Positions 13,686 through 56,399 of a stretch of DNA of 64,000 nt are shown here, one piece after another. Below the pieces are notes generated by a model. The model made no database searches. It was not told the origin of the DNA and saw only the letters and a program-made list of their open reading frames with translations. The DNA lies in NCBI GenBank assembly GCA_036397835.1, contig DASWIG010000188.1, positions 18,964-82,963 of the forward strand. The letters are read 5' to 3'. Within the stretch, counting starts at the first letter, position 1. Each line of letters begins with the position of its first letter. The translations under genes and the position numbers were made by a program. Source of the DNA: Thermoanaerobaculia bacterium (GTDB lineage: Bacteria > Acidobacteriota > Thermoanaerobaculia > Multivoradales > J023).

Positions 13686-13689
13686 TATC

Positions 13690-24300: not shown

Positions 24301-27300
24301 TCGCCGGCACCATGTACTCGGGGAGGCGCCGCGCCAGGTAGCTCCGGAGGTCCGAATCCGCCGGCGCGGGCTCGTCACGCGGCACCAGGTAGGCCACCAG
24401 CCGCCGCCGGCTGCGCTCGGGGCCCATCGCGACGACGGCCGCCGAGCGCACGTCCGGGTGGCTCTCAAGAGCCGCTTCGACCTCGCCCAGCTCGATCCGA
24501 TGGCCCTGGATCTTGACCTGGTGGTCCTCGCGGCCAAGAAACTCGATGGTCCCGTCAGGAAGGAACCGGCCCAGATCGCCCGTCCGGTAGAGCCGTCGTC
24601 CGCTCGGCGAAGCCACGAAGCTTCGCGCCGTCTTGGCGGCATCGCGCCAGTAGCCCCGCGCCAGGCCCACCCCTCCGATGAAGAGCTCGCCGATCACCCA
24701 TACCGGGCGCGGAGCCAGGAAGGCGTCCAAGACGTGAAATTCCTGGTGGCGCATCGCTCGCCCATAGGGCACGCTGTTCCAGGACGCCTCCACCTTCCCA
24801 ATCGGGTACAGGATCGACCAGATCGAGGCCTCCGTGGCGCCGCCCAAGCTCACCACCTCGGCCCGCGGGCACACCGCCCGGATCCGATCCGGCAGATCCA
24901 CCGGAATCCAATCCCCCGAGAGCAACACCAATCGCAACGAGCTCAAGTCCACGTCGTGTCGGCCGTCCGCCCACTCGATCAGCATCTCCATCAGCGCCGG
25001 GACCGTGTTCCAGACCGTGACTCGCCGCGCCGCGATCAGCTCGGCCCAATGCCCGGGATCCCGCAGCGCCGCGCCCTCCGGCAAGACCACGGCTCCGCCT
25101 GCCGACAGCAAGCCGAAGACGTCGTAGACCGAGAGGTCGAACGACAGAGACGAGAGATCGAGCACCCGGTCGCCCGGACCGATGCGAAAGCGTTCATTGA
25201 CGTCGAGGACCGTGTTGAGGGCGGCACCGTGCTCGATCATCACGCCCTTCGGCCGGCCCGTCGAGCCGGAAGTGAAGATCACGTACGCCAGCTCGCCGGA
25301 ACCTCCCGGTTCGCGGCGGACAGGTTCCTGGAAGCTTGACGGATCCTGATCGCCCTCTTCCGTCACCACCAACGGCGACACGGCGGTCGGCCATTCCGGC
25401 GACTTGGCGAGCCACGGCTGCGTCACGGCGACGGACACCTCGGCGCTGGCCATCAGCTCGGCGCGGCGGCGTCGCGGCAAGGCCGGATCGATCGGCAGGT
25501 AGGGGGCGCCGGAATCCAGGATGGCCAGCACCGCCACGACCTGCTCCCAACCCTTGTCCATGACGACCGCGACCGGACGCTCGGCCGCCGCGCCCGCGCG
25601 GCGCAAGCGCGCGCTCAAGATTCGAGCGCGGCGCTCCAGCTCTCCGTAGCTCAGCTCCGTGAACGGCTCCATTCCGCCACGCAGTGGAGCGACCACCGCC
25701 GTCCGGTCCCGGTTCACCGCGGCCTGGGCCAGGACCGGCTCATGAAGCCTCCCGCTACCGGCGGCGTGCGGGATGGCCCCGCCATGGACACGCGCCCACG
25801 GCGCGTCGGCGGGCACCATCCGGCCGGCCAGATCCGGACGGCTGGCTCGCCACGCGAGGTCGTCCTCCGCCAGAGATTCGAGCAGGTCCCGGTAAGCGGT
25901 CAGCATGGCGTCGAGAAGGCCCGCTGGGAACAGCTCTTCGACCGCGTCCCAGTTGAACCGCAGCGCCCCCTCCTGCTCCCAGACCTGGTGATCCAGCCAC
26001 ACCTGGGGCGTCTGGGAGACGCTGTAGACCGACTCGCCGGAAGCTCCCCGCCGCTCGTCCCCGGGACGGTCAGGAGTCGCCACCGCGGGCATCGTCAAGG
26101 TGCTGGTGACCACCACGGGCATCAGAGCGCCCGGGGCGCGGCCCTCGAGCCGCGCCAGCTCGCGCAGCACCCGCACCCCGCTGAAGTATCGATGATCGAG
26201 ATCCTCCCAGAGCCGTGCCTGGATCGCCCGGGCCCGCTCCTCAAACCGCGCCCCCTGCCGGAGGTCCACCTCCAGCAGCGTCAGGGACGTGAAGTCCCCC
26301 ACGATCGAGTCGACCTCGGGGTGAATCGGAAGCCGGTTGAAGAGCGTCAGGTTGAGGGTGAAGCGAGGATTGCGCGACCAGGTTGCCAGGACCTCGGAGA
26401 AGGCGGCCAAGATCAGGGCCGAGGACGTCAGGCCGCAGGGCGCGGCCCGTTGCTTCAAGCGCTTCCATGCCGGAGCCGCGAGGCTCGCGGAACGGCGGAG
26501 GAACCGAGGGCGCTCCACGGACTCGGGGGCCCGGGCCAGCGGGAGCTCCGGCGCCGGGGGCAGTCCGGCGAGGCGAGCCATCCAGTAGTCGCGCGAGCGC
26601 CGGTAGAGCGCGGAGCCCTCGAGCTGACGCTCGGCGAGGACGTAATCTCTGAACGACAGATCGGGAGGCTGCAGCCGGAGGGTGGGGTCGGCCGCCAGCC
26701 GGGCGTAATCGCGGGCCAGGATGCGGAAGCTCCAGGCGTCCCAGATCAGCGCGTCGCAGCTCAGGTGGACCCGTGCGCGCCCTTGCGGCAGCAGGGAGGC
26801 CTTGACCTCGAAGAGCGGCCATCGGTCGGTGGCGAGCACTTGGTGCGACAGGGTGCTCCGCATCCGCGCGAGCTCACGCTCCCGCTCCTCGGTCCGCATC
26901 CGGCGGAGGTCGCGAACCTCGATCTCGTAGGCGGGCACGTGCTCGAGGATCCGCTGGGTGCCGTCGGCGAGGACGACCATCCGGAGCATTTCGTGGCCCG
27001 CGACCAGGCGGTTCAGAATGCTCTCCAGGCTCGCCATCTCGACTCCCTGGGCTTCGATCTCCAGGTAGCTGTGGGTCGCGACGTTGCCCAGCTCGAAAGC
27101 GGCCTGGCGGCCTATCCAGTAGGCCTGCTGGACATCGTTCAAGGGGAACGGCTCGAAGCGCCGCGCCGGATCGGGCTCGACCCGGGGCAGCGCCTCCGGC
27201 ACCACGGGCTCGATCTCCAGGGCCTTCTCGCGCAGGATCTCTTCGGCGAGCCCGGCGACCGTCGAGGCCTGGAAGAAGACCCTGAGTGGCAACCTCGCGT

Positions 27301-30300
27301 GGAAGCGCCGCTCAACCCGGTCGAGGAGCTGCGTCGCCAGGAGAGAGTGCCCCCCGAGCATGAAGAAATCGTCGTCGACTCCCAGCTCGTCGAGCTCCAA
27401 GACCTCTCTCCAAAGGGCGGCCATCGCCTCTTCCGTGGGGTTGCGGGGCGCCACGAGGCCGGCGGCGGTCCGCGGACGCCGCTCCTCGGCCAACGGCGTC
27501 GTTGCGATCGGACGGCGTTCGGCGATCATCGAAGCCACCGGCAGCGTGTAGCCCGAAAACCGCTCGACGATCAGGGCGTGACGCTGTGCTGGACTGAGCA
27601 GCGGGAGCTCCATGATCGGCCTGTCCGGCTCCGACAGCGCGGCGACCACCAGAGCCTCGAGGTGCCCCAGCATTCGCTTCGTGGTGGTGGCGGCGAAGAG
27701 GTCGATCCGGTAACCCAGCTCCAGGGCGACGCGACCTTTTCGTTCCGCCGCCGCCAGGGTGAGATCGAATTTCTCCGTCCTCGCGGCGACGTCGAGAGGC
27801 TCGATACGCAGCCCTGGCACCTGCGCCTCGGCCTCCCGCAGCGGGCTGCTGGCGAAGAGGAACATGACCTGGAAAAGAGGAGAGTGGCTGAGGCTTCGTC
27901 GCGGCGAGAGCTCCTCCACCAGCCGTTCGAAGGGCAGGCTCTGGTGCGCGAAACCGTTCAGGGCCTCGCGGCGCACGTGATCGACCAGGGCCTCGAACGA
28001 CGTGACTTCGGCGATGATGCTGCGCAATACCAGGGTGTTGACGAAGAAGCCGATGAGCCCCTCGAGCTCGATGCGGTCGCGGCCGCTGACCGGTGTACCG
28101 ACACAGATGTCCTGCTGGCCCGTGTAACGAAGGAGAAGCGCCTTGAAAGCGCTCATCAGGGTCATGAATAGGGTCGCTCCCCGTATCCGGCTGAACTCCC
28201 GCAGCCTGTCGGACAGCGCCGTGGAGAGCACTCGGGTCGAGCTGGCGCCGCGATACCGCTGCACGGCGCCGCGCGGGAAGTCGGCGGTCAGCTCGAGCGT
28301 CGCCGGCGCACCTTCCAAGCGCTTCTTCCAGTACTCGAGATCGGCCGCGATCCCTTGGCCTGCCAGCCAACGCCGTTGCCAGTGGCCGAAGTCGAGGTAC
28401 TGGATCGGCAGCTCCGGCAACGGAGAGGGACGGCCGGCCGACCGCGCCGCATAGAGGGTCATCGCCTCCCGCGTCAGAACCTCCATCGACCAGCCGTCGC
28501 TGACGATGTGGTGAAGGGTGAGGATCAGCGCGTGATCGTCGGGACTCAGCTCCAGCAGGAAGAGCCGCAGGAGAGGGCCTCGGGCTAGATCGAACGGCCT
28601 CAGCGACTGGATGGCCGCGATCCTCCTTGCTTCCGGCTCACGCGCCGCCGCGATCAGGCCGGACAGGTCCACGCGCGGCAGCGATACCCTGGCAACGGCG
28701 GAGATCTCCTGGATCGGGCGCCCCTCTCGCGAGGAGAAGACCGTGCGCAGAGTCTCGTGACGCCAAACGATCTCGGCCAGGCTGCCCGCGAGCGCCTCGA
28801 CGTCGAGACCGCCGCGCATCCGCAGCGCGACCGGGATGTTGTAGACCGCGTTGCCCGGCTCAAGCTGATCGAGGAACCACAGCCGCTGCTGTGCGAAGGA
28901 AAGAGGCTTTTCACCTTCCCGAGGGACGACCTCCATGGCCGGCAGGTCGGAGCGCCGGCCCGCCCGGTTCCCGCGATCGATCAGGCCCGCGAGCTGCGAG
29001 ACCGTCGGCGAGGTGAAGACCTCCTGGAGCGACACCTCGGCGCGAAAGGCCACGCGAATCCGCGACACCAGACGAGTCACCAACAGCGAGTGGCCTCCGA
29101 GATCGAAGAAGCTGTCGTGAATGCCGACTTTGTCGACTGCGAGCAGCTCGGCCCAGAGACCGGCCAGGATCCTCTCCGTTTCACTGGCCGGAGCCACGTG
29201 TCGGCGCCTCAGGAGCTTGCGCGCCTCCTCAAGGCTCGGCAACCGGCGGGTGTCGACCTTGCCGTTCAGAGTCAACGGCATCCGTCGCAGATGGACGAAG
29301 AGGTTGGGTATCGTGCCCTCGATCAGAAAACGCTTGAGGTGGCGGCGCAAATCCGCCTGGTCGAGCATCTGCCGGGACACGTAGTAACCGAGCATCACTT
29401 GGCGGCCCGCCCCTTCCTCGGTCACCACGACCGCGGCGTCGCGGATCTCCGGATGACGGATCAGGGCGAGACGGATCTCGTTGAGCTCCACCCGGAAGCC
29501 GTGGAACTTGACCTGGTTGTCCATCCTGCCGAGGAAATCCACGCCGCCTTCCGGAAGCAGCCGGGCGTAATCGCCGGTGCGGTACATCCGCATGCCGCCG
29601 CGCCGGTCGAACGGGTCGCAGACGAACTGCTGCGCCGTCGTCCCCGGACGCGACAGGTAACCCTGGGCCAACCCCGGCCCGGCGAGAAACAGCTCGCCGC
29701 TCATGTTCTCCGCCACCGGCTGCAGCGCGCCGTCCAGCAGGTAGATCCGGGCCCCGGCACCAGCCCGGCCGATCGGCACGAAGGCCCGGTCGTCCTCCTC
29801 GGGCTCGAAGCGGTGGATCATGCAGCCGACGGTCGCCTCCGTCGGACCGTATTCGTTGTAGATCTCGATCTGTCCGCCGAAGCCCTCGTGGACGGACCGG
29901 GCCAGGCGGCTCGTCAGAGCCTCGCCGCCCACCACTAGGCGCCGGATTCCACATGCCTCCCGGCGATGCTCCGTGAGCAGCGCCAGGTGGCTCGGCGTCA
30001 GCTTCAGCACGCTGGGGCGCCGCTCGGAGAGAATGCGCGGGAAGGGGGACTGGCCGTCAATCCAGGGATGAACGAGGATCGCTCGGCCGGCCGCGAGCGG
30101 CGTCAGGACGGAGGTCACGGTGAGGTCGAAGGCGAGCGAAGAATGGAGGACGAAGTCGAGGTTCTCGCCGCTCAGGTAGACCTCCATTGCCCATTCGACA
30201 TAGTTCGCCAGCGCGGCGTGCGAAACCGCCACTCCCTTGGGCTGACCGGTAGAGCCGGAGGTATGGATCACATAGGCGAGGTCGGCCCCGCCGAGCTCCG

Positions 30301-31489
30301 GCCATCCTCCGGTGGGCGAGGCGGCCAACTCCTGCTCCCAGCCGGCGTCCAGGCAGAGCGTCTCGACGCCGGCCAGGGTCTCGAATCCGTCGATCCCGGA
30401 CCGCGACACCACCAGGGCGATGCCGGCACCGCGGACGGCCGACGACCTCCTTTCCGGCGGGTGCTCCGGATCCAGAGGCACAAAGGCGGCTCCCGCCTTC
30501 AGGATGGCTAGAATCCCCGCGACGGCTTCGGGCGATGGCTCGAGGCAAAGCCCTACGCAGTCCCCTCTTCCTACGCCACGGTCCCTCAACACGCTCGCAA
30601 GTCCCGTCACGAGGCGACCCAGCTCCCCATAGGTCATCTGGCCATGCTCTGAAAGGACGGCCTTGGCCTCGGGATTGGCCGCGACCCGCTCCTCGAAGTG
30701 CTGGCCCGCGCCGCGCGTTGGGGACCGCGAACGACCCCGCGGACAGACGAGCCACTTCGACGGCCGGGTCCGGGAGAGAAGCCGAAGGGCCGAGATCTCG
30801 AGCTCGGGCGCGCCCGCCATTCGTCCAAGCACGTCCTCGAGCTGCGCCGCGAAGGTCGCCACCGTCGAGTGCTTGAACAGGTCCCGGCGGTACTCCACCT
30901 CGGCCCCGAGCCCGCCCCGGCCGGCCGAGAAGGCGACCACGACCTCGCTGTGCGCTTCACGGTAGTGCTCCTCGTCGTTGACGGCGTCCAGAAGGACGCC
31001 GACGCGCAGAAGGCTCCGGGGGTTCGCCCAACCCCGATCCAAGATCTCGGGAATCTTCGCGAGAGGATACTTCTGGTGGGTAAAGGCTTCGGACAGGCTG
31101 TTCTTGACGGCGTTCAGGACCTGACGGACGGTGTGGGTAGGTGCCACACGGTCACGAATCGCCAGAATCCGGTTGAAGGCGGCAGCCTCCTCGAATCGCC
31201 GGTGGACCGCCGTACCGACGACGACGTCCTCGAGGCCGGTGTACTTGGCGAGGACGACCTTGACCGCCGAGATCAGGAAGGCCAGGGTCATGGAGGCATT
31301 GTCCGAGCACACCCGGCGCACCGCGCTTACGGTCGCGGGAGCTAGGCCCAGATCCAGGCGGCCGAAGGGTCCGGCACGGCGGCCGGTGGCCAGGTAGTCG
31401 CAAGGCAATCCGGCGGCGGACCAGTCTCCGGCAAGCTTCTGCGCCCAGTACTTCCTCTCCGTCTCCAGCTCTTCGTCGAGAAGACTCAC
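18374..31489 (-). CDS. Giant NRPS (~4370 aa from the GTG at 31489; ORF remains open to 31834): truncated-C - A - PCP - C - PCP (A-less) - Cy - A - PCP - Cy - A(Ox-embedded) - PCP - E-like
   Basis: Motifs in order. C-terminal half of a C domain only (ERKYWAQKL...LPCDY...TLAFLISAVKVVLAKYTGLEDVVVGTAVHRR, no HHxxxDG). A core LAYVIHTSGSTGQPKGV (~30190-30285). PCP FFDLGGHSLLVTRL (~29100). C domain LSFAQQRLWFL...HHIVSDGWS (~28500). PCP DDDFFMLGGHSLLATQL (27335-27380), reached only ~390 aa after HHIVSD, so there is no A domain. Cy1 FPLNDVQQAYWIGR (27121-27180) and DALIWDAWS. A core LAYVIFTSGSTGRPKGV (~25280), PCP LFDLGGNSLAAIQL (~24100). Cy2 FSLNEVQQAYWIGR (~23900) and DILLIDAWS. A core LAYVIFTSGSTGKPKGV (~22030) with an inserted Ox domain (KYRYPSAGNLYPVQTYLYV, ~20770). 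PCP FFEMGGDSIKGILF (~19940). C-terminal E-type domain (LGPVPLAPAQ..., VVHRLAADAASW, EGSRSR...TIGPFGNVFPL) and acidic tail EEFAEADFDEEDE. The first ~115 codons of the track ORF (R/G/P-rich; contains the VATQPVATQPVAV tandem-repeat translation) are judged non-coding; GTG at 31489 is the most upstream plausible start, but the real start is uncertain. Confidence 0.85.
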   Translation of the reverse strand: MSLLDEELETERKYWAQKLAGDWSAAGLPCDYLATGRRAGPFGRLDLGLAPATVSAVRRVCSDNASMTLAFLISAVKVVLAKYTGLEDVVVGTAVHRRFEEAAAFNRILAIRDRVAPTHTVRQVLNAVKNSLSEAFTHQKYPLAKIPEILDRGWANPRSLLRVGVLLDAVNDEEHYREAHSEVVVAFSAGRGGLGAEVEYRRDLFKHSTVATFAAQLEDVLGRMAGAPELEISALRLLSRTRPSKWLVCPRGRSRSPTRGAGQHFEERVAANPEAKAVLSEHGQMTYGELGRLVTGLASVLRDRGVGRGDCVGLCLEPSPEAVAGILAILKAGAAFVPLDPEHPPERRSSAVRGAGIALVVSRSGIDGFETLAGVETLCLDAGWEQELAASPTGGWPELGGADLAYVIHTSGSTGQPKGVAVSHAALANYVEWAMEVYLSGENLDFVLHSSLAFDLTVTSVLTPLAAGRAILVHPWIDGQSPFPRILSERRPSVLKLTPSHLALLTEHRREACGIRRLVVGGEALTSRLARSVHEGFGGQIEIYNEYGPTEATVGCMIHRFEPEEDDRAFVPIGRAGAGARIYLLDGALQPVAENMSGELFLAGPGLAQGYLSRPGTTAQQFVCDPFDRRGGMRMYRTGDYARLLPEGGVDFLGRMDNQVKFHGFRVELNEIRLALIRHPEIRDAAVVVTEEGAGRQVMLGYYVSRQMLDQADLRRHLKRFLIEGTIPNLFVHLRRMPLTLNGKVDTRRLPSLEEARKLLRRRHVAPASETERILAGLWAELLAVDKVGIHDSFFDLGGHSLLVTRLVSRIRVAFRAEVSLQEVFTSPTVSQLAGLIDRGNRAGRRSDLPAMEVVPREGEKPLSFAQQRLWFLDQLEPGNAVYNIPVALRMRGGLDVEALAGSLAEIVWRHETLRTVFSSREGRPIQEISAVARVSLPRVDLSGLIAAAREPEARRIAAIQSLRPFDLARGPLLRLFLLELSPDDHALILTLHHIVSDGWSMEVLTREAMTLYAARSAGRPSPLPELPIQYLDFGHWQRRWLAGQGIAADLEYWKKRLEGAPATLELTADFPRGAVQRYRGASSTRVLSTALSDRLREFSRIRGATLFMTLMSAFKALLLRYTGQQDICVGTPVSGRDRIELEGLIGFFVNTLVLRSIIAEVTSFEALVDHVRREALNGFAHQSLPFERLVEELSPRRSLSHSPLFQVMFLFASSPLREAEAQVPGLRIEPLDVAARTEKFDLTLAAAERKGRVALELGYRIDLFAATTTKRMLGHLEALVVAALSEPDRPIMELPLLSPAQRHALIVERFSGYTLPVASMIAERRPIATTPLAEERRPRTAAGLVAPRNPTEEAMAALWREVLELDELGVDDDFFMLGGHSLLATQLLDRVERRFHARLPLRVFFQASTVAGLAEEILREKALEIEPVVPEALPRVEPDPARRFEPFPLNDVQQAYWIGRQAAFELGNVATHSYLEIEAQGVEMASLESILNRLVAGHEMLRMVVLADGTQRILEHVPAYEIEVRDLRRMRTEERERELARMRSTLSHQVLATDRWPLFEVKASLLPQGRARVHLSCDALIWDAWSFRILARDYARLAADPTLRLQPPDLSFRDYVLAERQLEGSALYRRSRDYWMARLAGLPPAPELPLARAPESVERPRFLRRSASLAAPAWKRLKQRAAPCGLTSSALILAAFSEVLATWSRNPRFTLNLTLFNRLPIHPEVDSIVGDFTSLTLLEVDLRQGARFEERARAIQARLWEDLDHRYFSGVRVLRELARLEGRAPGALMPVVVTSTLTMPAVATPDRPGDERRGASGESVYSVSQTPQVWLDHQVWEQEGALRFNWDAVEELFPAGLLDAMLTAYRDLLESLAEDDLAWRASRPDLAGRMVPADAPWARVHGGAIPHAAGSGRLHEPVLAQAAVNRDRTAVVAPLRGGMEPFTELSYGELERRARILSARLRRAGAAAERPVAVVMDKGWEQVVAVLAILDSGAPYLPIDPALPRRRRAELMASAEVSVAVTQPWLAKSPEWPTAVSPLVVTEEGDQDPSSFQEPVRREPGGSGELAYVIFTSGSTGRPKGVMIEHGAALNTVLDVNERFRIGPGDRVLDLSSLSFDLSVYDVFGLLSAGGAVVLPEGAALRDPGHWAELIAARRVTVWNTVPALMEMLIEWADGRHDVDLSSLRLVLLSGDWIPVDLPDRIRAVCPRAEVVSLGGATEASIWSILYPIGKVEASWNSVPYGRAMRHQEFHVLDAFLAPRPVWVIGELFIGGVGLARGYWRDAAKTARSFVASPSGRRLYRTGDLGRFLPDGTIEFLGREDHQVKIQGHRIELGEVEAALESHPDVRSAAVVAMGPERSRRRLVAYLVPRDEPAPADSDLRSYLARRLPEYMVPATFVALATLPLTPNGKIDRRALPAPEEAAPKTRRDAGPTTPVERELTVIWQEILGRERVGAHESLFDLGGNSLAAIQLVNRVSETFGVDVPLRRLFQAPTVAGLAAAVDQMRAEQERSASLPAALPTIEPDRARRFEPFSLNEVQQAYWIGRGDAFELGNVASHGYMEIQSASLDLQRLEGAWQRLIERHDMLRAVVLADGRQRVLRDVPPYRIAVADLRGEPPAVVASELEAIRERMSHQVLPADRWPLFELRATRLEEGVRLHVSSDILLIDAWSSLILYRELMRLYQDPDAELPPLDVTFRDYVAAEAAFRDSPPYERSRRYWLDRLESLPPAPELPLARRPGTLTRPRFSRRRAVLERGRWSRLKKRAADAGLTPSGLLLAAFADGLATWSKSAEMTINVTTFNRLPLHPQVNEVVGDFTSLTLLQVDARGGKTFERFARTVQEQLWLDLEHRYFNGVSVLREWARARGRTASATMPVVFTSTLFHGEEPSQTGGPAAVGASEETVSAGQDGRSVYGISQTPQVWLDHQVSEGPEGLHFNWDAIEDLFPDGLLDAMFAAFHDLLLRLADQESTWSLRRPARVPEEQLAVLDQANATAAPAPRHLLQTPFMLRAARSPEDLAVLADGVRLSYGELARRARCLAERLRGLGVGPSRLVAVVMEKGWEQVVAVLGILEAGAAYLPIDARVPDERRQFLLENGRISVAVTQGGLTRELAWPPGVELVAVTADDPAAGTAQGSGAPPACGPRDLAYVIFTSGSTGKPKGVMIDHRGALNTVHDVNERFGIGPADRVLGLSSLSFDLSVYDVFGLLAAGGALVLPEPAAARDPERWAELIASHGVTVWNTVPALMEMLVEWASRSPGADLTSLRRVLLSGDWIPVDLPDRIRRLCPNAEVVSLGGATEASIWSILYPVREVPPSWTSIPYGRPMRNQRFHVLDQDLRTRPVWVPGELYIGGDGLALGYWRDAPTTASRFVAEPRSGERLYRTGDLGRYLPDGTIEFLGREDLQVKIQGHRIELGEVEAALEAHPLVRSAVVTAVGTRSRQRLAAYLVPEFAESRDSATAPDAASCASRLGPRGPGPGSSAAAPAASPVGPLDALGSLDFKLSEPGLRRDLDDRQGLQLLQLDADETLARGFGTRRSHREFLGETVPFSALSRLMGALGQVRLGDFPLPKYRYPSAGNLYPVQTYLYVKPAAVEDAPAGLYYHHARDHQLVLLQAGESVDRSLYGVHNQPIFDQAAFALFLIGDLRAIRPLYGESARDFCLLEAGYMSQLLMSEASGLGLGLCPIGDLAFEDLRGRLVLGDDHVLLHSHVGGRVAASAQSPRVRYPSPTFVVRAPGAGQTAEEAEAPLVSGSVDRAAWIGGVREFLRRKLPEHMVPALFVPLEKLPLSANGKVDRGALPTPDQLGQDRRETAVAPRTAVERTLARIWSEVLGVDEIGVHDNFFEMGGDSIKGILFITRAAEAGLTVSTRHVFEHQTIAALAARLCEQGQADQGTTLGPVPLAPAQVALLEEQTAPERAAHALWLEERRPHEAAAISRAVMELARRHDALRLRIERLVSGFWQVASSSRNGCPFAEIDVSSVPDGRWSGLLAAIEAQARVGFDVTRGPLLRVARVKSPADRPSRLLLVVHRLAADAASWPVLLAELDRVCRPPDTPPASPPRAAPISFRRWAEQVSRHSPSAELPESAHREASTPFLLVDHPERRSRTRGVTLRTISTHLSTELTSTLLCRVAETLRAEIEEVLLAAVLRVLARRSATPALRVDVEGSRSRRFLDLPDTTATIGPFGNVFPLRMELGADTSPTEALRRVKQRLRSLEGDGLLYGQLRYLRPQTETATRLRAEPPADVLVGFLGNLDVPGGDSAGWLAAVADGVQVLGPRGLYNRPLEVTGCVLAGRLRVDWTYNGLLFRRGTIESLAREGVAALGELIEEGAAGGSAYAPAEFSEADLSHDELERLVEEFAEADFDEEDE
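18420..19800 (-). other. E-like (epimerisation-fold) C-terminal domain with a degenerate active site
   Basis: Preceded by an E-type PCP (GGDSIKGI). Has the E-type N-terminus GPVPLAPAQ, the S-W order in HRLAADAASW (E domains: HHxxxDGxSW; C domains: HHxxxDGWS) with the second His replaced by Arg, and EGSRSR in place of EGHGRE. Confidence 0.55.
20340..20950 (-). other. FMN-dependent oxidase (Ox) domain embedded between A-domain cores A8 and A9
   Basis: Insertion in the third Cys-type A domain: ...LGDFPLPKYRYPSAGNLYPVQTYLYVKP...GLYYHHARDHQLVLL...LEAGYMSQLLMSEASGLGLGLCPIG...RLVLGDDHVLLHSHVGG (20340-20400). This matches the EpoB/BlmIII/MtaD-type Ox domains that aromatise thiazoline to thiazole. 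Confidence 0.75.
22700..23930 (-). other. Cy domain 2 of the giant NRPS
   Basis: FSLNEVQQAYWIGRGDAFELGN and VSSDILLIDAWS. Confidence 0.8.
25900..27180 (-). other. Cy domain 1 of the giant NRPS
   Basis: FPLNDVQQAYWIGRQAAFELGN and LSCDALIWDAWS (DxxxxDxxS). Confidence 0.8.
27300..29000 (-). other. A-less module: C domain (~27650-29000) followed directly by a PCP (~27300-27480)
   Basis: HHIVSDGWS at ~28500 and the PCP Ser motif at 27335-27380, separated by only ~390 aa; there is no AMP-binding core between them. Confidence 0.75.
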
Positions 31490-31824
31490 GGCGACAGGCT
31501 GTGTAGCGACAGGCTGTGTAGCGACAGACCGTGTATCGACCCCCAAGTCGTCTCCTTCATGCCTGGGCCTCCGGATACACCGACAACGTCGCCGGCCGTC
31601 CTCGTGGCCGCCGACGGACCCACGCTGACCATCAGTGGCCCCTATCCTACCCGGCCGTCTTTCCGGGCGCAAGAGCGCCCCCGGCCTCCGCGCTGAATCG
31701 GCGCCGTCGGGCGGACTCGCGCTTCGCCTTCGACGCGATCCCTGGTAGCCTTGGGCCTCCGAAGCGCTCGGCGGGCTGGGGACCCGCAGCCGGCCCTCGG
31801 GGCGCTCTGGGTTGGTAGCGCCGG
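31490..31824. promoter_or_regulatory. Divergent intergenic/promoter region between the giant NRPS operon (-) and the glycosyltransferase-like gene (+)
   Basis: ~335 nt with no credible coding frame (both overlapping track ORFs are R/P/G-rich). Contains the tandem 15-mers and a second direct repeat, TGGGCCTCCG, at 31564-31573 and 31752-31761. No -35/-10 consensus assigned. Confidence 0.5.
31492..31536. repeat. Three tandem 15-bp direct repeats: CGACAGGCTGTGTAG (31492-31506), CGACAGGCTGTGTAG (31507-31521), CGACAGACCGTGTAT (31522-31536), plus a partial fourth copy CGACCCCC
   Basis: Read directly from the sequence. Lies immediately upstream of the putative GTG start of the giant NRPS, inside the divergent intergenic region. 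Confidence 0.9.
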
Positions 31825-32895
31825 ATGCCGCCAACCGGTCCTTCGCAGGTCATGACTCTGGCGATCGTCTCCACCGTCCGCGATGCCGGCAAGGTGCTCG
31901 ATTCCTTCATTCGGTACCATGTTGCCATAGGCTTCGATCGCCTGTTCATCATCTTCGACGACCCGTGCGACCCCATGGCCGAGAGTGCCCGGAGATACCC
32001 GCAGGTCACGGCTCTCACCAACGACGACGGTCTGCGGCGGCGTTGGAAGACCCGGAGGTCCTACGCGAGGGTAGGCCCCTTCATCGACGACCACGTGATG
32101 TCCAGGCAGATCTTGAACGCCGAGGTCGCCATCGAGATGGCGCTCGAGATGGGCCTGGAGTGGATTCTCCATATCGACGTGGACGAGCTCTTCCACTCCC
32201 AAGAAGCCCCCAAGAAGCATTTCGAATCGCTGGCGGAGCGTGGCATCGACTTCGTGACTTATCCCAACCACGAAGCCGTTCCGGAAGCGTTCAAAATCGA
32301 CGATTACTTCAAGACGGTCACGCTCTTCAATAAGAACGCTTACACGCTTGAAGCCGGGCAAGCTCGCGGTCGGCGCCGCTTCCTCTACTACGGCAACGGC
32401 AAATCCGCGGCGCGCCTTTGCCGGAACCTGATGGCAAAGAGCGTTCACGAGTTCATGCTGTCTCGAGAGCGGAGCTGGGCCTACCGGAACTTCCTTCACC
32501 TCTTCTTGCCCTATCGGAAGATTCCGCTGGTCAAACCGCGGGTGTCGTTCGGCGGATCGTGGCGCAAGAGGGGGAGCGGGGGAAGCAGGGCTGCGTCGCA
32601 AGATGTCCACAAGCTGCCGGTGATCCTCCATTACGCCTGTTGCGGATTCCAGCACTTCTGGCAAAAATACAAGACCCTGGGATCGTTTCCCGACCGTTGG
32701 TTCGGCCGCGTCGAGCTTTCGCGACAGGTGCCCTTTCACGTGCAAGCGCGAAACGTCGTGATGACGCAAGGGCGGGAGGCCGCCAGAAAGCTGTACCAGG
32801 AAGTAGTCATGGCTGGCGGCGAGCAGGAAACGCGTGACCGCCTCGAGGCCGGCACCTTCTGCCGCATTGTCGAGCCCTCTCGCCTCTTGGCCTGA
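31825..32895 (+). CDS. GT-A fold glycosyltransferase-like protein (GT2/GT92-DUF23-like; DxD-type motif); low-GC gene
   Basis: 356-aa ORF with ordinary (non-low-complexity) composition; ATG at 31825 (alternative ATG at 31852 giving MTLAIVSTVRD). N-terminal LAIVSTVRDAGKVLDSFIRYHVAIGFDRLFIIFDDPCDP resembles the nucleotide-sugar-binding start of GT-A enzymes, and LEWILHIDVDELFH is a DxD-type motif. GC ~55-58% versus ~72% in the flanking megasynthases, with different codon usage (AAA, AAT, TTT, TTC and AAG codons). Confidence 0.55.
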   Translation: MPPTGPSQVMTLAIVSTVRDAGKVLDSFIRYHVAIGFDRLFIIFDDPCDPMAESARRYPQVTALTNDDGLRRRWKTRRSYARVGPFIDDHVMSRQILNAEVAIEMALEMGLEWILHIDVDELFHSQEAPKKHFESLAERGIDFVTYPNHEAVPEAFKIDDYFKTVTLFNKNAYTLEAGQARGRRRFLYYGNGKSAARLCRNLMAKSVHEFMLSRERSWAYRNFLHLFLPYRKIPLVKPRVSFGGSWRKRGSGGSRAASQDVHKLPVILHYACCGFQHFWQKYKTLGSFPDRWFGRVELSRQVPFHVQARNVVMTQGREAARKLYQEVVMAGGEQETRDRLEAGTFCRIVEPSRLLA

Positions 32896-32919
32896 GGCGG
32901 AGCCTCGTTAGGTCTACTA

Positions 32920-32950
32920 GGACGTGACTTGCGCACGCTCGGTCACGTCC
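32920..32950. terminator. Perfect 9-bp inverted repeat GGACGTGAC-(13 nt)-GTCACGTCC between convergent stop codons (32895 and 32969); candidate bidirectional terminator hairpin
   Basis: Stem 32920-32928 pairs with 32942-32950; loop 32929-32941; no U-tract. Confidence 0.45.
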
Positions 32951-32968
32951 AGCACGGGCGAAGTGCTT

Positions 32969-35900
32969 CTAGAAGGCGAAATCGTCGTCGAGCTCCTCCA
33001 CGTGGATCGGCGTCGCGAGGGCGGCCGTCTCCCGCCGCGAAAGCACGTCGAGCTTGCTCAGCCGCGCCTCGGGGGTCGCGACGATGCTCTCCAGCAGGCG
33101 CCCGAACCGGTCGAGAAGATTGCGAATCGTCATCGGGCTGAAGAGGTCCCGGCTGTACTCGAGCTCGCCACGAAGGCCGTCCGGGCTCGGCCACACGTTC
33201 ATGAGCAGGTCGAATTTGGCGCTCCGTCTCTTGATCCTGAATCCGCTGAGCTGCAGGCCTGGAAGCTGCAAGGGCACGGAAGGCGCGTTGAGCAGTGAGA
33301 ACACCACCTGGAACAGCGGGTTGTAGCTCGGATCGCGCTCTGGTTGGAGCTCTTCCACGAGCTTCTCGAAAGGCGTGTCCTGATGGCCATAGGCATCGAG
33401 CGTCGACTCGCGTATCCGCGCGAGGAACTCAGTGAAAGGCGGATCGTCGATCAGCTCCACCGGCAACAGGAGCATATTGACGAAAAAGCCGACCAGGGGC
33501 TCGACTTCGGTCCGCGTCCGGTGCGCCACGTTGGTCGCCACGACGAATCTCCGCTGTCCCGAGTGCCGCCAGAGCAGCAGGTCGAACGCCGCCAGGAGCG
33601 TCATGAAAAGCGTCGCTTGGTTCTCGCGGCTCAGGCTCTCGAGCCGCAGGGTGAGGTCTCGTGAGAGCTGAACGTTCTCGGCCGCGCCGCGAAACGACGG
33701 CACCGGCGGCCGTGGGTAGTCGGCGAGCCCGGCGAAGAGGCGCGGGATCCCCTCGAGGCGTTCACGCCAGTACTTCAGCTCACGCTCCAACACTTCTCCG
33801 CGCAGCCAGTTCCGCTGCCAGCGGGCGTAGTCGCGGTACTGGAGCGGCAGGTCAGGGAGCAGCCGAGCCGCTTCGGCGAGGCCGGCTCCTCCCTTGAAGG
33901 CAGCGTAGAGCGTCTTCAGCTCTCCCGCGATGATCGCCTGAGACCAGGCGTCCGAGACGATGTGGTGCTGAGTCAGGAGGACGACGTGAAGTCTCGCGGC
34001 GAGGCGCACCAGGGTGATGCGAACCATCGCGCCGCGGGCCAGGTCGAACGGCCTGGCGGCCTCCGACTCCGCCAGGCGGACAAGCTCGGCGTCGCGGTCC
34101 GGCTCACGGAGCGAGCTCAGGTCGGCGACGGGGAGGTAGGAAGGCCTGATGGGACCGACGACCTGCACCGGCTCGCGGCCGTCGGAGGCCTCGATGGTCG
34201 ACCGGAGCACCTCGTGGCGCCGAAGGATCTCTCTCAGGCTCGCCGCGAGAGCCGTGACGTCGAGGTGCCCCTCGAGCCGCAGCGCTCCGTTCACGTTGTA
34301 GGCCGAGCTGGCGCCCCGCAACTGGCTCAGCCACCACAACCGCTGCTGGGCGAAGGAAAGCTCTGCCGAACGGGCTGTGGGATCGGCAAGGATGGCGGGC
34401 GGCGCCGGCGCGTCGCCACGCCTCATTCGGGCGATCTCGGCGCTGAGCTCCTCCACCGTCGGGTGCTCGAAGAGCTGGCGCAAGCCCACCTCCACCCCGA
34501 GGCTCCGACGAAGCCGGGAAACCACCTGCGTGGCGAGCAGGGAATGGCCGCCAAGGTCGAAGAAGTTGTCGTGGGGGCCGAAAGGCTCGATGCCGAGCAC
34601 GTCAGCCCAGATTCCCGTCACCAGCTCCACGATGGGAGTCCGCGGAGTCGCCGGCGACACGGTCTGCGGCGTGACCTCCGGAGGCGGCAACGCCCCCCGG
34701 TCCACTTTGCCGTTGCGATTCAGGGGCATCCTTTCCAGGAAGACCAGCGCCGACGGGACCATCGGATCGGGGAGGCGCTCGCGCAGGAACCGGTTCAGCT
34801 CCTCTCGGCTCGGCGCCGCGGCGGGAGCCACCACGTAACCCGCCAGCCTCGGATTCCCGGCGCCGTCGCGGGTCAGCACGGCCAACGCTTCACGCACCGC
34901 TGGATAGGCGGCAAGAGCCGCTTCCACCTCGCCGAGCTCGACGCGGAATCCGCGGATCTTGACCTGCTGATCGGCTCGGCCCAGATACTCCAATCCGCCG
35001 TCGGCGAGACGACGGGCAAGGTCGCCGGAGCGGTACAGGCGAGCGCCGGCCCGCTTGCTCCAGGGATGGGGAACGAAGCGCGAAGCGGTCAAGCCCGGGC
35101 GGTTCAGATACCCCCGGCTCAAGCCTTCGCCGGCTACGACGATCTCCCCCGTGACCCCAAGGGGAAGCACGGCCAGCGCCGCGGAGACGAGATGGACCTC
35201 GAGGTCCGGAAGCGGCCCGCCGATAAGACTTCCGCCGACTCTCCTGGCGGTGTGAGCCCGCCTGATCGGCAGCACCGTGACGTGCACGGTCGTCTCGGTG
35301 ATGCCGTACATGTTCACCAGCACGGGGCTCGACTCCCCGTGCCGATCGAGCCACGGGCGAAGTGAGCCAAGATCCAGGGCCTCGCCTCCGAAGATCACCC
35401 GCCGCAGAGCCAGCGCTCCGGGCTCGGCGACGTCGCGAAGGCTGCGAAAGGCCGAAGGAGTCTGATTGAGCACGCACACGCGTTCTCGCACCACGAGAGA
35501 ACAAAGCTCCTCGTGGGAGCGACTCGTCCAATACGGCACCACCACCAGGCGGCCGCCGTGAAGGAGAGCCCCCCACAGCTCCCAGACCGAGAAGTCGAAA
35601 GCGTAAGAGTGAAAAAGGGTCCAAGTGTCGCCGGAATGGAAGCCGAACCAGGGCCGCGTGGTCTCGAAGAGCCGCACGACGTTGTGGTGGGTCACCACCA
35701 CGCCCTTCGGTTCACCCGTGGAGCCCGAGGTGTAGATCACGTAGGCGGCCCGATGCGACTTGGGCGAGGTGTCCGGCCGGCACCTGTCAGGCTCTGCCGC
35801 GGGCCATCGGTGATCGAGATGGATCCTGCGCACACCGCTTTCCGACAGCTTCGGCGCGAGGGCGTCGGTCGTCAGCAACGCGGCGATGCCGGAGTCCTCG

Positions 35901-38900
35901 ATCTTGCGGGCCAGACGGTGGCGGGGCTCGTCGGGATCGAGCGGCACGTAGGCGCCACCGGCATTGAGCGTGGCGAGGATCGCCACGACCATTTCCGGCG
36001 TCCGCTCCAGGAAGAGACCGACGCGGACCTCGGGAGCGATACCGAGACGGCGGAGCCGGTCGCCCAACCGCCGCGACGTCCGGGCGAGCCGGGCGTAGCT
36101 CAGGGCGGCGCCTTCGAAGCTCACCGCCACGGCATCCGGGGTGCGCCCTGCCTGGACCGCGAAGAGCCCGTCGAGCGTCTTCTCGGGGCACGGCAAAGAA
36201 TCCGAGCCGCCCGAGCATTCCGTGAACGTCTGGTGGCTCTCGGCAACGCTCAGCAACGGGAGCGCATCGAGTCGCGTCTCGGCGGCGTCTTCGTCGGCCA
36301 TCGCCTCCAGAAGACGCCGATAGTGTCGCGTCATCCTTTGGACGGTCGTGGGATCGAAGAGCTCGGCGCGGTACTCGATCGCTCCGCCCAGCCGCTCGGC
36401 CGTCTCGCCCACCTGGAGGGTCAGATCGAAACGCGCCACGGTGACCGGTTGGCCAAGGGCCACGAGCTCGACGTTGCGCAACCTCGGCGGCACCCGCGGC
36501 AGGTTCTGGAGGACGAAGACCACCTGGAAGATCGGCGAATGAGCAAGGTCCCGCTGGGGCCTCAGCTCTTCCACCAGCTTCTCGAACGGGAGCTCCTGGT
36601 GGGCGAACGCCGCCAAGGTCGCTCGCCGCACCCGGCCGAGCAAGGTCCGCAGCGTCGGGAACGCTCGGCCGGAATCGCCACGAACGTCGGTGCGCAAGAC
36701 CAGCGTGTTGACGAAGAAGCCGATCAACGCCTCCGTTTCCACCTGCGTACGGCCAGCCACCGGGACTCCCACCACCACGTCGCGTTCGCCCGTGTAGCGC
36801 GAGAGCAGGGTCTGGAAGGCGGCGAGCAAAGTCATGAAGAGAGTCGTTCCTTCGCGGCGGCTCAGGAGCCGGACGCGGCGTCCGAGCTCGGGCGGCAGGT
36901 TCAGGGGACGTCGGCCGCCGCGCGAGCCCGGCTGCGCCGGCCGTGGGCGGTCGGCCGGAAGATTCAGAACCGGCGGCGCGCCCGCGAGGCGATCCCGCCA
37001 ATAGGCCAGATCCTTCTCCAGGTTCTCTCCCGCGAGCCAGCGCCGCTGCCACACGGCATAGTCCGCGTAGGAGATCGGGAGCTCCGGAAGCGGCGATTCC
37101 CTCCCGGCCGCCGAGGCCTCATAGAGCGCCACCATCTCCCGTGCGAACAGGTGCATCGACCAGCCGTCCGCGGCGATGTGGTGGAGGGTGACGAAAAGGG
37201 AGTGGTCCTGGTCGTCGACGCGTGCCAGGCTCACCCGGAGCACGGAGCCGCGGGCGAGATCGAAAGGCCGCAGAGCTGACGCCGCGGCGAGCCTCTTGAG
37301 CTCCTCCTCGCGGACTGCGGAGGGCAGCCGGCGCAGGTCGACCGCCGGCACCGGCACCGGAGCCGGCGGCAAGACCTCCTGCCGCGGTCCGTTGTCTTGC
37401 TCGGAGTACACGGTTCGCAAGATACCGTGGCGGCGAACGATCGCGGTCAGGGCATGGACCAGAGCCGCCACGTCGAGTCGGCCCACGAGGCGAAGCGCCA
37501 GGGGGATGTTGTAGGCCGGATTGATGGGCTCCAGCCGATTCAAGAACCAGAGGCGTTCCTGGGCGAAGGAGAGCGGCAGGATCCGGCTCGAGGCCGGGAG
37601 GAGGGGCGCGAGCCGCGGCCTCGGTGGCCTCGGTGATCCGGCTTCGGAGTTCATGGTCCGTTCGACCACGCGCGCCAGAGATCCGAGCGTCGAAGCCTCG
37701 AAGACCTCCTGGAGAGCGACCTCCACGCCGAACAAAGCGCGAATGCGGGAGGAGACCCGAATCGCCATCAACGAGTTTCCGCCGAGCTCGAAAAAGTCGT
37801 CGTGGAGACCGACCTGGTCTCGGTCCAGCAGATCACACCAAATCGTAGCCAGAGTCTCTTCGAGAGGCGTGCGCGGCGAGGCCCGGCTCTCTCGGGCATC
37901 CGAGGCGCCCGGATCAGGCAGGCCACGGCGATCGATCTTACCGCTCGGAAGACGAGGAAAGTCGTCCAGGACGACGAAGACCGACGGGATCATCGAGGCC
38001 GGCAGCTTTTCGGCGAGCAAGGCGCGCCAAGGCTCCGCGTCGCTTCCCGCGGCCGCGGCGCCCGACACGTAGGCCACGAGGCGCCGATCCGGTGTCGCGC
38101 CGGCGCCACGGTCCCCGCCGGGCTGCCACGTCACGACCAGGGCCTCCCGCACCCCGGGGAGCTGCCGCAGCGCCGCCTCGATCTCGGCCGGTTCGATGCG
38201 GTGCCCGCGGACCTTGACCTGGTGATCGATGCGGCCGCGGAACTCCACGTTGCCGTCGGCCAGATGACGCGCCAGATCGCCGGTTCGGTAGAGGCGTTCG
38301 CCCGGCTGCCGTGAAAGGCCGTCGGGAACGAACACCTCCGCGGTGCGGGCGCCCTCGCGGAGGTAGCCGCGCCCGAGGGCGACACCCCCTACGTGAAGCT
38401 CTCCCAGGAGACCGACGGGAACGACGCGCTGCGCGCGGTCGAGCACGAAGGTCCGCAGGCTGCGCAGAGCCCGTCCCACCGGCGTATGGAGGACGCCCTC
38501 CGCCAGCGGCCGCGCGAGGCGGAAGTGGGTGACGTCGTCCGAGCACTCGGTCGGCCCGTAGGCGTTGAGGAGAGGGACCTCGGGGAAGCGGCCGAGCCAG
38601 CGCCGAGCCAGCGCCGGCGCCAGGGCCTCGCCGGTCGGAATCAGCCACCGCAGCCGTCCGAGAGAGGCCTGCGTGCCCTGCTCTTCGATCTCCGCGAGAA
38701 GGTATTCGAGCAGGGAGGGAACCACCTCGAGATGGGTCACTCCGCCGGCAAGCGTCGCCCCGAGAAGCCTGCGCGGGTCCGGGGCCTCTTCTTCGGGAAC
38801 CACGTGGACGCGACCGCCGACCACGAGCGACGCCAGGAGTTGCCAGACCGACACGTCGAAGCACTGCGACGCGTTCTGAGCCACCACGCTCCGGGCTCCG

Positions 38901-47100: not shown

Positions 47101-47362
47101 CCGGCAGGCGCAGCCCGGGCGGGCAGTGGAAACGGCTCCGCAGGACCTCGTGCCGCGTCACGACGTCTTGCAGGACGCTGCGCAGCCGGGACACCTCGAG
47201 TGGCCCGCGGACGTCGATCTCGAGCCGGGCAGGACAACAGGCCGGGAGAGCACCCGACTCCGGCTCGGCCCCGGCCGCCAGCGCCCACGCCCGCCTCTGT
47301 TGCGGCGACAGGCGGTATCCTCGTACAGGCTCCGGACGATCCACCGATTCCACCGGTTGCAT
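44156..47362 (-). CDS. NRPS, C-like (degenerate, lacks the HH motif)-A-PCP, 1068 aa
   Basis: ATG at 47362, 15 nt after the TauD-like stop. N-terminal ~450 aa has C-domain C1/C2-like motifs (RLSPQQRRAW, VTRHEVLRSRF) but LELTALQADSRGLRQL where HHxxxDG should be. A core LAYVMFTSGSTGEPKGV, PCP FFDLGGHSMRAILI, acidic tail DEEVRDQLADEA. Confidence 0.85.
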   Translation of the reverse strand: MQPVESVDRPEPVRGYRLSPQQRRAWALAAGAEPESGALPACCPARLEIDVRGPLEVSRLRSVLQDVVTRHEVLRSRFHCPPGLRLPVQIVTEAVVELTVADAAETRKSPEPAVGSAIRARLIRLAPERWTLELELTALQADSRGLRQLAAEVAAAYGGGVRQGEEPMRYVDLAEWQNELAHGDDAEQGRRFWANRRPGDTRWLRLPLEGTGGSEPPELRFTSVTLGEGVAAATDRLAERSGVSPAAVILAAWATLLGRLTGRREVPVATCYDGRSYEGLERVIGPLERYLPLRLDCGPRRRFREVAGQAFELTEELYDWQEFYQPQDDVFLPWAFLFEEGETSWRGGEASFSLTHHSALTERFVVRLAVFRRAAGPACSGALDAELAYDAGRLTPDSARRMAERLSTLLAAAVLDPDRFPEDLDVVSPAEREVIEVWSVSSPEVPGRRPADAVRLFLERVEHGPDRIAVICAGQHVSYRRLAAVAGDVACRLRRRGVGPETLVGICLDRSPDMVAGVFGVLMAGGAYVPLDPAYPRERNLRVAELARPALILTRGRLRDALPAPAQVLRLDEDCRDEDREERAPSPEADPQSLAYVMFTSGSTGEPKGVMVSHANLAHYLDSLPEALGVGGDDVFLHTASFAFSSSVRHLLVPLSRGAALVLATDEERSDPKRLLGLARNTAATVMDTVPSLWRGCLKVLGSPAAAGYRPRLALSTGEVLAAEVPREWERRFEDPPRFVNMYGQTETAGMVALHPVPRRFEDPDGMPLGRPIRGVAVFVLDRRSRLSPIGCTGEIHVAGGAPGRGYLRRPALTAERFVPDPHSGRHGSRLLRTGDLGFFDGGGCLRFVGRLDHQVQVRGHRVEPGEIEAALGAHPDVELCAVRARDSGSGEIELAAYVARGVGRDPEPRSLRAFLEERLAPYMVPSRFLVLDELPMTPNGKVDRLALPELEEAAARPYVAPSTELERQLAEIWAAVLAVERVGLHDDFFDLGGHSMRAILIMSRLQERYGVDLPAFRLFEVRTVAQLALLVEELQLADASDEDLAEALQELAELSDEEVRDQLADEA

Positions 47363-56387: not shown

Positions 56388-56399
56388 CTGTGAGATCCT

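Follow-up and report, generated by a model that had tools for sequence, protein, structure and literature searches.

Why would a giant nonribosomal peptide synthetase (NRPS) begin with only half of a condensation (C) domain? The question is raised by a 64,000-nucleotide stretch of DNA from a Thermoanaerobaculia bacterium of the Acidobacteriota (assembly GCA_036397835.1, contig DASWIG010000188.1, positions 18,964 to 82,963 of the forward strand), which is referred to here as the window. In it, the 4390-aa NRPS encoded at 18374..31546 (-) has at its N-terminus the C-terminal lobe of a condensation domain only (Pfam Condensation, profile positions 188-450 of 456), followed directly by an AMP-binding adenylation (A) domain. 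An earlier note on this DNA described the half domain and offered two explanations: a docking remnant that would allow the terminal C domain of the preceding NRPS to condense in trans, or a 5' truncation of an ancestral C domain by insertion of a low-GC glycosyltransferase gene. We argue that the half domain, which we call C*, is a genuine, conserved, non-catalytic scaffold and the docking half of a module that receives its live C domain in trans; we put the probability of this reading at roughly 60%.

Translation of the open frame 18374..31834 (-) gives the sequence that the earlier note described. The first module encoded in it is laid out as follows.

30773..31504, minus strand: C*, the C-terminal lobe of a condensation domain only, non-catalytic; residues 15-258 (Pfam, C* family hidden Markov model (HMM), family alignment A2, nearest-neighbour test)
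30737..30772, minus strand: C*-A linker, rich in Arg, Ser and Pro (RTRPSKWLVCPRGRSRSP), divergent, with the LLxxFNxTxxxYP motif of the family lost (comparison with homologues)
29246..30736, minus strand: adenylation domain of module 1, code DLTKVGEVGK (Asn-type, read by alignment to GrsA); A3, A8 and A10 intact
28976..29200, minus strand: carrier (T) domain of module 1, GGHSL intact, serine present in this T1 (motif scan, HMM)

C* scores 303 bits against the HMM of its own family and matches Pfam Condensation with E = 4e-22. A motif scan of NRPS 18374..31546 found no HHxxxDG ahead of the first A domain; the motif is present in all other C domains of the window. Alignment to C-domain structures, which the earlier note had suggested as a way to define the truncation point, places it after the N-lobe: in searches of the PDB with the sequence and with the family profile, C* aligns only to the second half of canonical C domains, the matches starting at residue ~186-208 in chains that begin with a C domain and at ~268-280 in didomains of a peptidyl carrier protein (PCP) and a C domain. 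The profile search of the PDB returned no solved structure that starts with a C*-type domain. Upstream, an N-lobe HMM trained on the C domains of the window and run with filters off gave negative bit scores only in all six frames of 31400-33000, so that no N-lobe is hidden there. Both the half domain without N-lobe or HHxxxDG and the lack of an upstream frame carrying the missing half, as the earlier note had them, are thereby confirmed.

In its features C* is a lobe-only domain of the C*/ADA type, with homology to the C-lobe only, neither N-lobe nor HHxxxDG, and an N-terminal position directly before an A domain. It is not a catalytic condensation domain (LCL or DCL), as it has neither the pairing of HHxxxDG with an N-lobe nor the canonical motifs C4 (YxDYAxW) and C5 (GxFVNT). 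Nor is it an X or interface domain, since it is a single lobe at the N-terminus and these have a full two-lobed fold downstream of a T domain.

How isolated is this case? An exhaustive HMMER search with C* against 1.84 billion representatives gave 27,073 matches at E <= 0.001. When the best 150 of these were re-ranked by single-domain score, 18 N-terminal lobe-only domains came out on top with 74-176 bits, the best internal C domain reaching at most 71 bits; all 18 matches lie at residues 4-22 of their proteins, all of these proteins begin with Met, and the layout of C* homologue proteins is C*-A-T-(C-A-T)n. A genome scan with the C* family alignment gave 46 loci, and an in-frame stop lies no more than 78 codons upstream of the C* boundary in 26 of the 28 close genomic relatives. 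A nearest-neighbour test was then made on 882 C-lobes pooled from proteins and loci, the protein of origin being excluded from the best match: the nearest neighbour of a lobe-only domain was another lobe-only domain in 63/66 cases, despite full C-lobes being 12:1 more numerous, and that of a full C-lobe was a full C-lobe in 804/806. Because of these stops and these neighbour counts, C* is a coherent, old family with a fixed boundary and not a series of accidents. Its close relatives come almost all from metagenome-assembled genomes of Acidobacteriota.

The family alignment A2 has thirteen invariant columns. Compared with full C-lobes, motif C4 is absent from C*, C5 is reduced to LNxxLALR, C6 reads HQK instead of HQD, and there are deletions of ~5 and ~13 residues, the larger of which lies where C-domain structures have the latch to the N-lobe. 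The YW, VGT, PLF and final EY..LF strands are retained.

This record bears on the second of the two explanations, in which insertion of the glycosyltransferase gene would recently have removed the 5' part of a C domain, and on the kindred idea that C* is a functionless relic in decay. A glycosyltransferase-2-like (GT2-like) gene does occupy the opposite strand beside C*.

31852..32895, plus strand: GT2-like gene (PF13704, 347 aa), lying in the gap where relatives have a tailoring gene, on the opposite strand (Pfam)
31547..31851, no strand: divergent intergenic region between the NRPS and the GT2-like gene, with no N-lobe and no radical-SAM remnant

The gene has a GC content of 60.5%, lower than that of its neighbours, which agrees with what was first noted and speaks for the insertion. 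The deficit lies mostly in codon positions 1 and 2, and GC at third positions (GC3) is only mildly lower, at 0.79 vs 0.83-0.85 in the NRPS genes, so that low GC is weak evidence for a foreign origin. In homologous clusters without this gene, the comparison that had been proposed to settle the matter, dozens of relatives have the same lobe-only start at the same boundary. The residues of C* are strongly conserved, and its identity to the full C domains of the window is no higher than 21-29%. Since the C domain of the upstream protein is complete, no domain was divided at the junction. On sequence grounds, the fixed boundary in relatives and the nearest-neighbour test effectively refute a recent truncation, and truncation or decay is scarcely tenable as an account of C*. 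A recent duplication of the upstream terminal C domain was rejected as the source of C*, the two being only 26% identical.

If C* is not debris, how might it sit in its module? An AlphaFold2 model of C*-A-T was made from an alignment of 11 sequences, with a mean predicted local distance difference test score (pLDDT) of 78 and a predicted template modelling (TM) score (pTM) of 0.73. Its best global superposition in Foldseek is on holo-EntF (5T3D), with a TM score of 0.79 normalised to the 890-residue query and a root-mean-square deviation of 4.8 A. As C* makes up 27% of the query, this TM score would be unreachable unless C* superposed at the C-lobe position, together with T and both parts of the A domain, and C* is thus predicted to occupy the canonical C-lobe position on the A domain. 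A compensated frameshift was considered as the cause of the odd C*-A linker and rejected, since no other frame restores FNxTxxxYP. The A-domain code is DLTKIGEVGK or DLTKVGEVGK in 17/21 of the relatives' A domains that follow C*, both of them Asn-type codes. DLTKIGEVGK has been treated among the Asp/Asn codes (PMC12283262). Other members of the C* family are followed by A domains with Gln-, Val- or Ile-like codes, so that C* is not tied to one substrate.

Where, then, would a catalytic C domain for this module come from? The preceding NRPS, encoded at 32969..44137 (-), ends in these elements.

34430..34654, minus strand: last carrier domain (donor T) of the upstream NRPS, with a Thr-type A domain (DFWNIGMVHK) before it (HMM, code extraction)
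33041..34387, minus strand: complete terminal C domain of the upstream NRPS, HHIVSDA, apparently catalytically competent to judge from its motifs (Pfam 4-455 of 456, 320 bits)
32972..33040, minus strand: 23-residue C-terminal tail of the upstream NRPS, IHVEELDDDFAF-COOH, with a conserved F-x-F motif (sequence, comparison with relatives)

The terminal C domain scores 227 bits with the N-lobe HMM and 378 bits with the C-lobe HMM, which bears out the earlier observation that this protein closes with T and a complete C domain. The tail behind it is acidic-aromatic (final letters ...EELDDDFAF). The upstream proteins of relatives stop uniformly 23 residues past the C-lobe, ending for example in IEELDxSFSF. 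The window thus has the junction that we propose here as a type, a complete terminal C domain followed by a tail of ~23 residues ending in F-x-[FL]-COOH, with C* as the next domain.

A survey of such tails, in relation to the domain that comes next, covered every protein end with a terminal full C domain in loci L007-L054 and in the window, 48 in total.

Next domain C*: 33 junctions, F-x-[FL]-COOH tail in 26
Next domain A: 6 junctions, tail in 0
Next domain full C: 5 junctions, tail in 0
Next domain other or none (one C-lobe, three contig ends): 4 junctions, tail in 0

The tail thus accompanies a following C* in 26/33 cases vs 0/15 otherwise (Fisher p = 1.6e-7, a value that overstates independence, as the loci are phylogenetically related). 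The taxa surveyed include Acidobacteriota, Aminicenantes, Halanaerobiales and a cultured Rummeliibacillus. Among the best 150 matches of the protein search, the tail is found in 13 of the 20 representatives that have both a C* start and a C-domain end; several of the other seven are truncated fragments. In a prospective test, three proteins were picked solely for their tail and the downstream neighbour was then inspected: a lobe-only start came next in two of the three. In one (L060), the next protein begins with C* (133 bits with the C* HMM vs 69 with the C-lobe HMM), and in another (L061) a carbamoyltransferase gene intervenes before an NRPS with a lobe-only start. The pairing of tail and C* is strong, though not absolute.

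The same junction is seen in a cultured member of the Bacillota, Rummeliibacillus stabekisii NBRC 104870 (NZ_BJVD01000005.1, locus L048), where the upstream protein ends ...PDFKF, stop, and C* follows 31 nt downstream.

The pairing also speaks to the possibility that the two NRPSs are not partners at all, the downstream one being an independent assembly line with a C*-A-T loading module of the ACVS or ThdA kind, and the upstream terminal C domain releasing or cyclising its own chain. Known C* examples do stand at true assembly-line starts (PMC7884236, PMC7253712), and the window's two NRPS genes are in different transcription units with a divergent gene between them. In relatives, both genes run in the same direction, often next to each other or with coupled translation, and are found in the middle of the cluster; the scores of the terminal C domain resemble those of an ordinary elongation C domain; and the pairing of tail with C* implies partnership. 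Taken together, two separate lines are highly improbable.

What lies between the two genes in other genomes was examined with HMMs for the N-lobe, C-lobe, A, T, C*, ketosynthase, radical S-adenosylmethionine (radical-SAM) and glycosyltransferase domains on six-frame translations. The conserved order in relatives is ...T-C(full), stop, [gene], C*-A-T-C..., and in ~20 loci the gene in the gap encodes a B12-binding radical-SAM protein of the PhpK family (TIGR04479, 670 bits vs a cutoff of 600), running in the same direction as the NRPS genes. Other occupants are a CmlA-like diiron beta-hydroxylase (L015), a LanB-like dehydratase with a protease (L021), the carbamoyltransferase already mentioned (L061) and a transporter of the major facilitator superfamily (L033). 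The slot is empty in L017-L019, L025, L032 and L036; in L032, from Holophagales, each of the consecutive subunits has C* at its start and a C domain with F-x-F at its end. Around the GT2-like gene, and across the whole window, a search for a radical-SAM remnant gave chance matches only (E > 0.6), and the replacement of the gap gene in the window may be recent. The exact GT2-like protein is present on 23 metagenome contigs. Its homologues, which share 35-47% identity with it, carry the annotation GT2 or hypothetical, and the closest adjoins a large synthetase, an ABC transporter and a type II thioesterase.

Two further observations concern the slot. In a Blastocatellia relative, an IS200-like Y1 transposase gene lies between the terminal C domain and the radical-SAM gene (L014:7326-7778), so that the slot tolerates insertions. 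PhpK-family B12 radical-SAM genes stand directly 5' of Asn- or Gln-type C*-A-T modules in ~20 Acidobacteriota clusters (L009-L035; e.g. L009:8255-9919), which suggests an undescribed methylation of carrier-bound Asn or Gln. An apparent fusion of radical-SAM protein and C* in L027 was rejected; the two are in different frames with a stop between them.

A gene so often in this place invites the thought that C* could serve to recruit the product of the gap gene, a tailoring enzyme acting in trans, much as an X domain recruits a P450 or an interface domain a beta-hydroxylase. Most relatives have a tailoring gene directly 5' of C* (~20 of them radical SAM, plus others), and degenerate C-type domains that recruit enzymes are established (noted in PMC8097023). 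The same C* family is nevertheless found with very different slot enzymes or with none at all, as in the loci with an empty slot, and no fusion of a slot enzyme with C* was found, the L027 case being one of different frames. We regard such a recruiting role of C* as improbable.

The reading in which C* is both scaffold and docking half has to be weighed most carefully against one in which it is purely adenylation-activating or stabilising, in the manner of ADA, with no docking function, the F-x-F tail binding elsewhere, for example to an A or T domain. For this simpler role there is experimental precedent in ADA and in the C* of ACVS (PMC7884236), and the canonical packing of C-lobe on A domain in the predicted model would suit it. 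Several observations that weigh against docking on C* fit it too. In L059, the protein that comes after an F-x-F tail has no C* and opens with its A domain, so that the tail may bind an A domain or another surface; and L013 and L031 have C* proteins with no upstream terminal C domain nearby. Also to be set against docking are the 7/33 C* junctions where a clean F-x-F tail is absent and the nature of the case for a contact between tail and C*, which is one of co-occurrence statistics. The window itself has a C/A split, 13690..18390 followed by 8562..13715, that does without C*, so that C* is not obligatory for a split module. The structural and substrate parts of the proposal carry reservations of their own: the C*:A packing given by AlphaFold, from an 11-sequence alignment, may partly reflect solved C-A structures learned by the network, and the Asn assignment is a code match only. 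Against a role confined to the A domain stand the strength of the tail/C* co-occurrence, the consecutive subunits of L032 and several representatives that have both a C* start and a C domain with F-x-F at the end, and the window protein 8562..13715 (-), whose A domain has no C-lobe partner. We consider such a restricted role unlikely, if credible.

On the preferred reading, with C* as scaffold and docking half, one elongation module would be divided between two proteins, the upstream NRPS contributing the catalytic C domain and its tail, and the downstream NRPS contributing C*-A-T. C* would keep the canonical platform of C-lobe and A domain in cis and stabilise or activate the Asn-type A domain, an activating role proposed by analogy with the C* of ACVS and with ADA. 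It would also be the most likely landing site for the upstream tail and C domain, and, once docked there, that terminal C domain could catalyse in trans the condensation of the upstream peptidyl-S-T with Asn-S-T1. The intergenic gap is a recurrent slot for a tailoring enzyme that would probably act on the residue loaded by C*-A-T, and here it is occupied by the GT2-like gene; the split would leave the aminoacyl-S-T accessible to the slot enzyme before condensation. Of this scheme, computation backs the identity, boundary and family of C*, its predicted packing on the A domain, the conserved upstream C domain with its tail and the statistical pairing of tail and C*; docking, trans condensation and tailoring are inferred. 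The first of the two explanations in the earlier note has thus gained ground, in that the half domain belongs to a conserved family with a fixed boundary and is paired with tailed terminal C domains; the docking contact itself we infer.

A broader proposal is more tentative, and we hold it at somewhat less than even odds: the F-x-F tail ((D/E)xxF-x-F-COOH) and C* would together be a previously unrecognised class of NRPS docking, one that splits C from A and opens a slot, genomic as well as kinetic, for tailoring of the aminoacyl-S-T before trans condensation. Possible modifiers acting in that slot, put forward with the same reserve, are the radical-SAM methylase, the beta-hydroxylase, the dehydratase, the carbamoyltransferase and, here, the GT2-like protein. 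More speculatively still, the tail might complement the C4 segment (YxDYAxW) that is missing in C*.

Does any of this depend on where the NRPS starts? The elements around the start are these.

31552..31557, minus strand: Shine-Dalgarno AAGGAG, five bases 5' of TTG 31546 (read from the sequence)
31544..31546, minus strand: TTG, the likeliest start codon of the 4390-aa NRPS; the alternative is GTG at 31487-31489
31491..31540, minus strand: 15-bp tandem repeat, 3.3 copies (Tandem Repeats Finder), coding for VATQP units if TTG is the start

There are four in-frame start candidates, and only TTG 31546 has a well-spaced ribosome-binding site. GTG 31489, which the earlier note took as the first plausible start, is without a Shine-Dalgarno sequence and is the less likely choice; the remaining two suffer from overlap with the divergent gene or from poor spacing of a GGAGG. 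ENA and JGI differ in their gene calls, with TTG (4390 aa) in the former and GTG (4371 aa) in the latter. Homologues have 0-20 residues ahead of the family boundary, which is compatible with both starts, so that the conclusion on C* is the same whichever is used. The upstream sequence had been described as Arg/Gly/Pro-rich junk running through tandem repeats: the repeats are real, under the TTG start they are coding, and the Arg/Gly/Pro-rich frame further upstream is indeed non-coding. Residues 1-20, the repeat-coded tail under that start, have pLDDT <50 and are predicted to be disordered. A promoter and terminator scan of 31547..31851 found no sigma-70 consensus promoter and no terminator, and an Rfam scan gave no match. 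Over its full length, the junction is found with 100% identity in six independent metagenome contigs (ENA and JGI) and is thus not an assembly artefact.

The rest of the cluster is unusual in several respects. In the 4390-aa NRPS, residues 873-1438 (27233..28930, -) form a C-T module without an A domain, placed between module 1 and the first heterocyclisation module. Residues 1461-4390 (18374..27166, -) contain two modules of heterocyclisation domain, A and T (Cy-A-T) with the Cys code DLYNLSLIWK; the second has a nitroreductase-type oxidase inside its A domain, and thiazole formation is expected. In the final C/epimerisation (E)-like domain of this protein, HR replaces HH (VVHRLAADAASW). A third C/A split in the cluster, the one without C* mentioned above, is that between 13690..18390 (-), whose full terminal C domain is followed by the tail ...LLSEAEEDTVLAGFCEAL, and the overlapping 8562..13715 (-), which has an A domain at its very start. 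It resembles a simple break or frameshift within the C-A linker, and similar C/A splits occur in L039, L043 and L052.

On the other side of the junction, the polyketide synthase 44156..47362 (-) ends in an acyl carrier protein and a C domain with intact HHLVCD, and the next protein, 48424..57582 (-), begins with a dead, full-length C-like domain in which LTALQAD replaces HHxxxDG, followed by A-T. The A domain after it has the code SSRDLTMGMK, from which Asp235 is missing, and for this reason its substrate is suggested not to be an alpha-amino acid. At 56970..59072 (-), a luciferase-like monooxygenase domain is embedded mid-line in a Gly-type A domain (code DILQLGVIWK). In 1..8560, no open reading frame of >=150 aa has a Pfam match, including the one of 1176 aa at 844..4374 (+), and past the last NRPS neither a thioesterase nor another release domain was found.

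Engineering of NRPSs needs cut points within modules and rules by which subunits recognise each other. If our reading is true, the portable pair of tail and domain would be a new docking toolkit for such work, and the junction would support the C-lobe and A domain as a real functional unit. For genome mining, it would give a simple rule: wherever a terminal C domain has an F-x-F tail, a partner with C* at its start is to be expected, often with a tailoring gene between the two. This would help to order the subunits of the very large clusters of uncultured Acidobacteriota. The presence of the junction in the cultured R. stabekisii NBRC 104870 (L048) makes it experimentally testable.

How does the junction compare with systems already described? 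A lobe-only C* is already known as a kind, from ACVS, from the ADA of Lys2 and NPS3, and from several starter modules. The C* of ACVS (PMC7884236) resembles that of the window in being N-terminal, directly before the first A domain, and an isolated C-lobe with no N-lobe or HHxxxDG and only the late motifs; its deletion abolishes ACV formation (Iacovelli et al. 2021, PMC7884236). It differs in standing at a true assembly-line start, with neither an upstream terminal C domain nor a partner tail, and its Pfam match is very weak (E about 1e-3, PMC7884236) as against 4e-22 here. Adenylation by NPS3 depends on its ADA domain (Kalb et al. 2015, as cited in PMC7884236). In alpha-aminoadipate reductases of the NPS3/Lys2 type, ADA is, like C*, a C-lobe-like N-terminal domain, needed by the A domain that follows. 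Positions 2-217 of the Lys2 model TIGR03443 align to C* residues 34-260 with E = 1.7e-9 and 35.6 bits, far below the whole-protein cutoff. Unlike C*, ADA belongs to single-module reductases outside multi-subunit lines, with no docking context and another A-domain substrate. ThdA of thermoactinoamide (PMC7253712) and fungal C* domains of the FmqA/FmqC type (PMC10212144) are likewise listed as truncated C domains that precede a first A domain and are presumably inactive, and a gatekeeping influence of such truncated starter-module domains on the A domain has been suggested (PMC7253712, PMC10212144). They differ from the window in being described singly, as inactive remnants at the start of a line, with no family, tail or gene slot reported. 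The 'adaptor domain' of tomaymycin was considered as a match for C* and rejected, being a different N-terminal element.

The X domain of glycopeptide NRPSs and the interface (I) domains for beta-hydroxylases are non-catalytic members of the condensation superfamily that are kept for protein-protein interaction. They are full two-lobed domains that follow a T domain, whereas C* is one lobe and precedes an A domain. Fuscachelin C3 was dropped as a natural example of a terminal C domain acting in trans, since PCP2-C3 and PCP3 are both from FscG (PMC8097023).

Among docking elements, a review recognises COM and PAX as the only NRPS-exclusive classes, plus beta-hairpin docking (PMC9113145). The COM, PAX and short linear motif (SLiM)/beta-hairpin pairs (PMC9113145) are like the proposed junction in that one subunit ends in a short motif, often acidic, for which the next has a folded recognition element at its N-terminus, so that subunit order is enforced. 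These known pairs join T (or E) to C, between modules, and their N-terminal element is a small helical one or a beta-hairpin; the break in the window is inside a module, between C and A, and its candidate N-terminal element is a 240-residue C-lobe with a partner tail that comes after a C domain, so that the junction belongs to none of the known NRPS pairs. Mid-line use of C* and a partner tail are also absent from the review (PMC9113145), and our incomplete literature search found no description of a mid-line C* after a terminal C domain, of a conserved partner tail or of a recurrent tailoring-gene slot.

A further parallel comes from engineering. The window would hold a natural and recurrent break between C and A in which the acceptor half has the C-lobe only. 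In the XUC concept, which reportedly goes back to Bozhuyuk et al. in 2019, the co-evolving exchange unit is said to consist of C-lobe, A and T (with the next N-lobe), cut between the two lobes. That cut point is essentially the start of C*. The XUC is engineered within one polypeptide, whereas the cut in the window is made by nature, with a whole C domain upstream and an extra lobe.

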